DNA from: a virus
Lineage: Duplodnaviria; Heunggongvirae; Uroviricota; Caudoviricetes
Length of the DNA: 27,648 bases
Reading direction: 5' to 3' (one strand)
IMG/VR virus record: IMGVR_UViG_2728369593_000020
Positions 6,001 through 9,000 of the stretch are shown here, in pieces (the first letter of the stretch is position 1; every line of letters starts with the position of its first letter). Made by a program: the position numbers.

Positions 6001-9000
6001 CCTGCCGGACCAGCATCACCTGCCGGCCCCCTTTCACCGGTTGCCCCTGCCGGGCCGGTGTCGCCACGCTCTCCTTTATCTCCCTTCGGCCCCTGAGGAC
6101 CCGCGGGCCCCGGTTCCCCCTTTGGCCCGGGAGGCCCCACCACGGTCGGGATTCGGTTTACGGCTTCTTCCGCCGCTATCCTGCTTTGTTCCGCTGACTG
6201 TGCGCTTTCTGCTGACTCCCGGGCTTTTTCTGTTGCGGTCGTTGCATCCCTGGCTGCATTACCGGCTGCACTTTCTGCCGTCTTTTTTGACAACTCAGCA
6301 TCTGCTGCACTTTGTGATGACTCACTGGCTTTTTGAGCAGCCGCAGAGGCCGAGGACGAGGACGCCTCCTCTGACTGCTTTGCAGCGGCTGCACTTTCTG
6401 CCGCCTGCCGGGCTGACTCCGATGCATCCCCTGCTGAAGTGTCAGCATTTGCAGCGCTCTCTTCTGCCTGACTGGCTGATATGCCGGCATTCCTCGCGGA
6501 CGTCTCCGCCTCTCCGGCATTCTTCTTCGCCTCCTCAGCGTGACGCGCCGCTTCTTCCACCATCAGTTCAAAACGACGCAGTGCCTCCGGTCGGACATCA
6601 TCCTCCGTCATGGCACCGAGAAAATCATTCAGCGTACCTGGTCTGGAACCTTCATAGACGGTAATGGTACCGGCATGTGAAGGCGGAAAACCTTCAACCA
6701 GCAGGGTGACGCTGTACTGACCATGCTCAACATCCATGCTGTAACGTCCGGCTTCATCCGGATTTTCAGAGGCCACCGTGTTCACCACCACCGTGCTGCT
6801 GGTTCGTCTGGCCTTCAGCACAATGGTGCAGTTCTGTACTGGTTTTCCTGTGCCATCTTTAAGCACGCCAGAAATTTTTACTGTCATACTTTTCCACCAA
6901 TAAAAAAAGCCCGCAGCAGTGACGCCACGGGCTTCAGGACAGTGTAACTTTACGTTTCCTCAAACGCAGTTCACCCCATAAGGTGGATGAACCTGCGTAT
7001 CATAACAATATTTACAGAAGATAAATCGGCGTCTGTTGTCAGAAACGGTATCCGATACCAACAATAAATGCATCCGTTCGCCAGTCGCCACTACCGGAAC
7101 CTTCATAAGCAAGGTCAATGGTCACGGATTCGGTCGGGTTAAACTGCACGCCAGCCCCCCACGCCAGAGACGTGTTGCTGTGGCGACCGTCATCACTTCC
7201 GGTCAGCACATCGTGCGTTTTCCCCTTGTTGTCAGTTACGCGGAGATAATCCCCGGAGAAAGTCGACACACGGCTGTAAGCCACACCCACCATCGCATAC
7301 GCGCTGAACCATTCATTCACGCGTACAGACGGCCCCGCCATCACGCTGAACCAGCGGTTACGCACGGAATCTTCATGCCAGCGGGTATCGCTGTAGTGCG
7401 TTTTTTGCTCATCCTCAGCATTGGCATAACTGAAGGACGTAATCAGCCCCAGCGCGTCCGTAAACTCATAACGGTATTTCACGTTAATCCCGTTCAGATT
7501 ATCGCTGCCGGGAGCGTTCGTACGGGCATGAAGATACCCCGCGCTCAGTGTGGACTGATGTTCAGACGCCCATGCAGGCGCACCGGATACGGACAGACAG
7601 ATGGCTGCGGACAAAATGGCTGCACAAACTTTACGCATAATTACCTCTCGCTTTTCTGCAATAAAAAAGGCGCCATTTCTGGCGCCCGTATATGGGTTAT
7701 AAAATTCAGCTGATACTGATGCCTGCGGTGGCTTTCTTCATCACCACAACCAGCAAATCGCTGATACTTGCTGTGGGATACCAGTTATTCACCAGCCATG
7801 CTGACACCGAAAACTCCAGTGTCATGTGACCGTGACCGGCAGGCATATCAATAACACCACTGTAAATCAGCGTATTATCCAGCGCGGTACGGTTATAAAT
7901 TTCAGCACCGTTTTTCCGCACTATCAGACGGCATGAGGAGTAAATATCAGTATGCTCTTTCTCATGTTTAGCGCCGCTGAATGCCACCGCCGGAATAACA
8001 ATCTGCCGGTCAAACGGCTGATCGTCATAAACCCTGACGGTAATGGTCCCTGATGGCCACCGCTCCGGTGCACGGGAGTCCCGGGGGAAAGCTTTGCCCA
8101 CTGTTTTAACGAGATCGCCTTCAATCTGGTTGGCGGACAGTTTTCCCAGAACCCGACAGTTTTCGTTAATCGTGACGTTGTTGAGCGTCCCGGAGTTCGC
8201 ATTCACGTTACCGCTGATATCGGCATTTTTCGCCGTCAGCCGCCCGTCCGGTGTCAGGGAAAATGCCGGAGGATTACCGCCACTGGTAATGGTGGGAGCC
8301 GTCAGGTATTTCAGGAACACTTCGTTCATGAATATCTGATCGCCCTGACCAACAAACATCGGCTTTGTGTTGCCATTCGCAGGATTAATCATCGCAATCC
8401 GGTCAGCAGCCAGAAGCACCTGACTCTGCATACCTGCTGGCGTATTCTCAATACCGGCTCCGATACCCGCAATATAAAGGCGTCCGTCCTTCATCTGCTG
8501 CAGTTTCACGGCCCACATGCTGTTCAGGTTATTATTTGTATCAACCTGAACTTTCTGTATCTGCTGGATTGCCGCGCTCTGATTTTCCAGTTTTTTATTG
8601 ACGGTCTGCGTGATTTCATTGCTGACATTCGTAATGGACGTCCTGATTTCAGCCAGATCAGGCGCAAGCTGACCGTTATCAATCTGCGTCCACAACTCCT
8701 GAGCCAGATGGGTTTTCCCTATCTCTCCTTTGAAAAATCCAGATAGCCGGATGCATCATCACTCGGCTGGCCAACAGCCTCCACAAATGCCGATTTGCCA
8801 ACAGTATTCACACTGCGGATATAAAAATAATAATCATGGCCCGGTTTGATATTGATACTGGCAGCTATCCAGTACAGCGCCGAGCCAAGATAGCGGGCTG
8901 CGGTTTCAACCTGCCTGATATCCGCAATCCGCTTTTCCGAGAACCAGAACTCAAACTGTACCGTCGGGTCATAAACGGCAAGATGCGGCGTGGCGGTTAT

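Follow-up and report, generated by a model that had tools for sequence, protein, structure and literature searches.

A one-nucleotide break in the tail-tip gene J of an E2348/69-like lambdoid prophage is probably an error of the draft assembly

The central tail fibre protein of phage lambda, gpJ, is a single chain of 1132 amino acids (aa; PDB 8iyk, 8xcg, 8xci, 8xcj), with its resolved proximal tip made up of residues 1-807 (PMC12617516), and its domain names and functions, including those of the alpha-helical shaft, the straight fibre and the receptor-binding domain, are used here as given in PMC11101478. The NleA/NleH/NleF lambdoid prophage of enteropathogenic Escherichia coli (EPEC) O127:H6 E2348/69, located at 1.450-1.478 Mb, carries a gene of the same kind, and there J (NC_011601.1 1466496-1469969, WP_000514675.1) is an intact, single open reading frame (ORF) of 1157 aa with a run of six T residues (T6). 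The stretch of DNA analysed here (the window) is the final 27,648 nucleotides (nt) of draft contig AKYH01000013.1, assembly GCA_001605745.1, and contains the counterpart of the E2348/69 prophage. Its J, the tip attachment or central tail fibre gene of a lambda-like prophage, spans 7706..11178 on the minus strand and is split in two by the loss of a single T. Judging from sequence comparison, we conclude that this split is probably an assembly or base-calling error in the draft genome and not a real mutation.

The deletion and its place in the gene can be read directly. At 8750-8719 the minus strand reads GGC TAT CTG GAT TTT TCA AAG GAG AGA TAG, with a T5 run at 8733..8737 (A5 on the plus strand) where E2348/69 and other relatives have T6, and the premature TAG at 8719..8721 follows in the shifted frame. 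The original prediction had rightly attributed the split to one T missing from an A5/T5 run that ends an N-terminal ORF, but it placed the run at 8744-8748, about 11 nt from its true position, and gave the ORF 820 aa instead of 819. This N-terminal ORF (8719..11178, minus strand) encodes 815 native residues followed by the out-of-frame residues SKER. Beyond the T5 run, J coding continues in the -1 frame to a stop at 7706, the C-terminal coding part occupying 7706..8732 on the minus strand and corresponding to residues 816-1157 of the repaired protein; within it, the mechanical ORF list gives an ORF of 329 aa with a TTG start (7706..8695, minus strand).

Base-by-base comparison with E2348/69, against which all differences below are counted, places this deletion among several of its kind. 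Nine isolated 1-nt insertions or deletions (indels) lie in the window and a tenth lies just outside it, over ~29 kb in total. The portal gene has gained an A at 21514 and another at 20783, the tail assembly gene T has lost a G at 17190, and the tape measure gene has gained a G at 15470 and an A at 14742 (A6 to A7); J has lost its T at 8737, the side fibre gene and nleA have each gained a T (at 5838 and 3662), an A has been gained in intergenic DNA at 2647, and a T8 run has become T7 in nleF, just beyond the window. The nine indels that accompany the one in J are seen as directly as the J deletion itself and are likewise private to this assembly, while the DNA around them is ~99.9% identical to E2348/69 and identity reaches 100% in many neighbouring genes. 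Seven of the ten are changes in run length, two of which lengthen "runs" of just one or two bases, and in the remaining three the inserted base is unlike either neighbour; natural slippage would favour neither insertions outside runs nor runs of one or two bases, and we take this mix to resemble the error of flow-based sequencing. The indels spare neither structural genes nor the effectors nleA and nleF, whatever the function of the gene, and the effector genes should be under selection.

The contrast with finished genomes is clearest in the 13.46-kb head-tail module, for which NCTC86, PCN033 and MLI114 served as controls. Relative to E2348/69, each of the three has 13-15 substitutions and lacks indels, whereas the window has 6 substitutions and 5 indels over the same module (Fisher p = 1.5e-4). 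Because nine further private indels of one base accompany the J deletion within ~29 kb, it becomes much likelier that the break is not real; many isolated 1-nt indels in near-identical DNA, private to one assembly, are what an artefact would leave behind. On this account, a T6 homopolymer would have been read one base short, as T5, in a draft assembly where indel errors are frequent (~0.3 per kb locally), and the organism would carry an intact lambda-type J of 1157 aa comprising the hub, FNIII-1/2, the alpha-helical shaft, the straight fibre and the receptor-binding domain.

The distribution of the lesion in other assemblies is consistent with this interpretation. Among ~15 billion proteins, the 819-aa and 329-aa J products and the fragments TMP-540, portal-246, portal-262 and NleA-329 occur on this contig only; the exception is a 325-aa tape-measure fragment, which is also found off this contig. 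At least 34 finished-genome records with the identical 151 nt carry T6, among the matches listed, and the T6 20-mer is present in at least 120 IMG/VR contigs. A T5-seeded 42-nt search recovered T5 at this run in 2 of 5,426 finished E. coli genomes, O26:H11 FWSEC0001 (CP031922) and ECO_1_S (CP065821), and an IMG/VR scan recovered T5 in J in two draft contigs. All four cases carry further frame changes inside J, several of them in each of the two finished genomes, and in FWSEC0001 the lom and fibre genes are annotated as frameshifted too. T5 at the J run thus appears only in assemblies that look rich in errors, and T5 together with the J allele of the window occurs in no other assembly among the finished genomes and the protein collection. 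Other T5 matches were set aside: the 15 matches of a T5 19-mer in species-representative genomes fall in unrelated organisms and are chance matches, and four of the six matches in IMG/VR are likewise unrelated.

Several observations weigh against an artefact. That the indels arose in sequencing rather than in the cell is a step that we infer, and T6 runs are genuine mutational hot spots. The Logan contig SRR15425301_976, an independent dataset from a slightly different phage, shares the +A at 14742 (near its own position 1328) and lacks the +G at 15470, so the former may be a true variant or a homopolymer error, recurrent in either case. The sequence reached outside the window on the same contig amounts to 7.3 kb, and the 6.9 kb of it beyond nleF, of which trpCBA makes up 3.5 kb, has 4 substitutions but is free of indels, a mildly unexpected outcome given the ~2.3 that a uniform error rate predicts (P(0) ~0.1). 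For trpCBA alone, the count is 0 indels against 1.2 expected (P = 0.30), a figure that covers only 3.5 kb of core sequence. Genuine J frameshifts are, moreover, documented in finished prophages such as VT1-Sakai.

What the break would do to the protein, were it real, follows from the domains on either side of it. Pfam assigns the 819-aa ORF four domains, PF24801 (FNIII-A_GpJ), PF13550 (Phage-tail_3), PF24421 (Ig_J) and PF24489 (Ig_J_second), each with E below 1e-38 and the last ending at residue 815, while the downstream ORF matches PF09327 (Phage_Tail_Tip) and PF12421, the receptor-binding Ig_GpJ_C. Because both ORFs carry strong matches to gpJ-specific families, the split is no chance juxtaposition. 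With one T added, the gene encodes a protein of 1157 aa whose full length aligns with lambda gpJ 8iyk (E=0), as the original prediction had expected from its reading of the junction, with 8iyk residues 1-836 aligning to the N-terminal part (E=0). The fibre and the receptor-binding domain are not in the same polypeptide as the hub in the gene as deposited, and are so once the T is added. Since the last domain ends at residue 815, the lambda domain layout puts the break exactly at the junction between FNIII-2 and the shaft. The deposited product would therefore be a tip protein without helical shaft, straight fibre or receptor-binding domain, in agreement with the earlier claim that a real split would cost the C-terminal receptor-binding region: Ig_GpJ_C lies beyond the TAG and in another frame.

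Such a loss is what would be expected if replication slippage in the T6 run had really inactivated J in a decaying, effector-carrying prophage, an explanation that we hold to be unlikely. Under it, an 819-aa product retaining the hub and the two FNIII domains would be without the straight fibre, the receptor-binding domain and the shaft that clamps the FNIII-2 trimer. Any particles would then fail to bind their receptor, leaving the prophage permanently in the chromosome as an island of nle cargo. Among natural causes of frameshift, slippage in homopolymers is the most common, and the adjacent trpCBA genes without an indel and the +A at 14742 common to an independent dataset fit decay as well. 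J is also often truncated or split in finished genomes of related prophages that carry effectors or Stx, each time at a site other than the T-run. In VT1-Sakai (AP000400), J is annotated "truncated protein by a mutation" and has lost a G at ~aa 370; in phage 204576 (CP025907) it is broken at ~aa 287 by a change from G3 to G2; and several O157-type loci carry J versions of 951 aa and of 640+166 aa. VT1-Sakai and phage 204576, like FWSEC0001 and ECO_1_S, belong to the same gene family as the window J and show 1-nt deletions that split it.

Against decay stands the number of events that it needs. Ten independent 1-nt indels would have to have been fixed alongside ~32 substitutions outside a mosaic patch near J, and five alongside six in the head-tail module. 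If a neutral ratio of ~0.1 indel per substitution is assumed, P is 4e-4 to 6e-3. Three of the ten, in addition, are insertions outside runs, and nleA and nleF are struck along with the phage genes. A decay lesion would be expected in related strains or independent assemblies, whereas the T5 form of this J allele and its products are found in no other assembly among the finished genomes and the protein collection. The exact repaired 1157-aa J allele is likewise absent from the collection of ~15 billion proteins by exact look-up.

A functional split is far less plausible still, and we consider it very improbable. It could take the form of two halves that are made separately and assemble, in the manner of the hub pb3, fibre pb4 and receptor-binding protein pb5 of phage T5, or of full-length J produced by -1 ribosomal (P-site) or transcriptional slippage on the U5/T5 run. 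The break does fall on a domain boundary, the end of Ig_J_second, and -1 re-pairing of tRNA-Phe on A-UUU-UUC would restore the native DFFKGE exactly. Yet the site reads T TTT TCA and offers no canonical in-frame X XXY YYZ heptamer, no downstream structure is predicted (fold z = -0.47), and the AGGAG lies downstream of the run and not upstream. Nor is a two-frame layout conserved, as close relatives, lambda and at least 120 IMG/VR contigs read through J in one frame. With the heptamer, the stimulatory structure and the conservation of the layout all failing, programmed -1 frameshifting was rejected. Separate production of the second half fares no better, the C-terminal ORF having only a TTG start, directly abutted by the AGGAG, and no usable start. 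With 99.6% DNA identity to an intact gene, the J of the window can have undergone no adaptation to a split. The variant in which T5 is real and a hub-only 819-aa J is supplemented by rare -1 slippage to a few full-length trimers, as a leaky, tunable switch of infectivity in a prophage that carries effectors, is scarcely credible.

If the break is an error, as we favour, J of this strain is an intact lambda-type gene and it is the record that should be corrected. Left as they are, six phage morphogenesis genes and the two effector genes nleA and nleF would be wrongly scored as pseudogenes, and any conclusion on prophage decay or effector repertoire based on the assembly would be distorted. Caution is due before portal, tape measure, J, fibre, NleA and NleF are taken as lost in this assembly. 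If the break is real, it is a familiar case: a defective prophage with effector cargo in which one more tail gene has been inactivated.

The prophage around J follows E2348/69 in gene order, running from terS and terL through the capsid, portal and tail genes to K, I, J, lom and the side fibre gene, then nleA, an integrase remnant and nleH; nleF and the trp operon come next. On the map transferred from E2348/69, J thus lies after K and I and before lom and the side tail fibre gene. Upstream of J, the 3' end of gene I and the I-J spacer (11253-11652) form a mosaic patch with dozens of substitutions and small indels relative to E2348/69, set in DNA that is 99.9% identical to it; it resembles a tract recombined in from another lambdoid prophage. 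The last 390 nt of the window (27259-27648) have no match to E2348/69, where an HNH endonuclease gene lies on the upstream side of terS; an ORF in these 390 nt (27271-27639, minus strand) matches the Tn5/IS4 transposase dimerisation domain, and the contig ends inside this insertion sequence (IS), the probable reason why assembly broke off here. An ORF of 180 aa (4539-5081, minus strand) with no Pfam match lies between the tail-fibre remnants and nleA. At a similar position, related O157-type loci have a 180-aa ORF recorded as T3SS_NleG, the likeness being one of position and length, and in the matching region of E2348/69 PGAP annotates only pseudogene fragments. In the flanking chromosome, trpCBA differs from E2348/69 by 2 substitutions in 3.5 kb, and the IS4-like element ISEc13, which lies between IS200 and trpA in E2348/69, is absent; the strain is therefore close to E2348/69 yet distinct from it.

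The J gene of the window has its nearest relative in the E2348/69 prophage. It shares 99.6% DNA identity with the E2348/69 J, from which it differs by 12 substitutions and the one deletion, and the 1035 nt downstream of the T-run are identical in the two. Most of the substitutions are clustered, 8 within 190 nt (10225-10414) and 3 within 10 nt (9569-9578), and the repaired protein differs from that of E2348/69 in only three residues, L119Q, D534A and E537A, the latter two arising from the 9569-9578 cluster. The repaired J also has the same Pfam domain order as lambda gpJ. Its hub and FNIII part (residues 1-834) aligns with gpJ at 1493 bits, and its YLDFFKG, across the repaired junction, corresponds to gpJ residues 814-820. 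Divergence is greater in the C-terminal fibre and receptor-binding part (319 bits), and the receptor may therefore not be LamB. The deposited J, unlike lambda gpJ, is frameshifted at the junction of FNIII-2 and shaft, and beside the intact gpJ of lambda and E2348/69 on one side and the broken J genes of VT1-Sakai and its like on the other, it is nothing new either way, being a homopolymer miscall or a routine prophage pseudogene.
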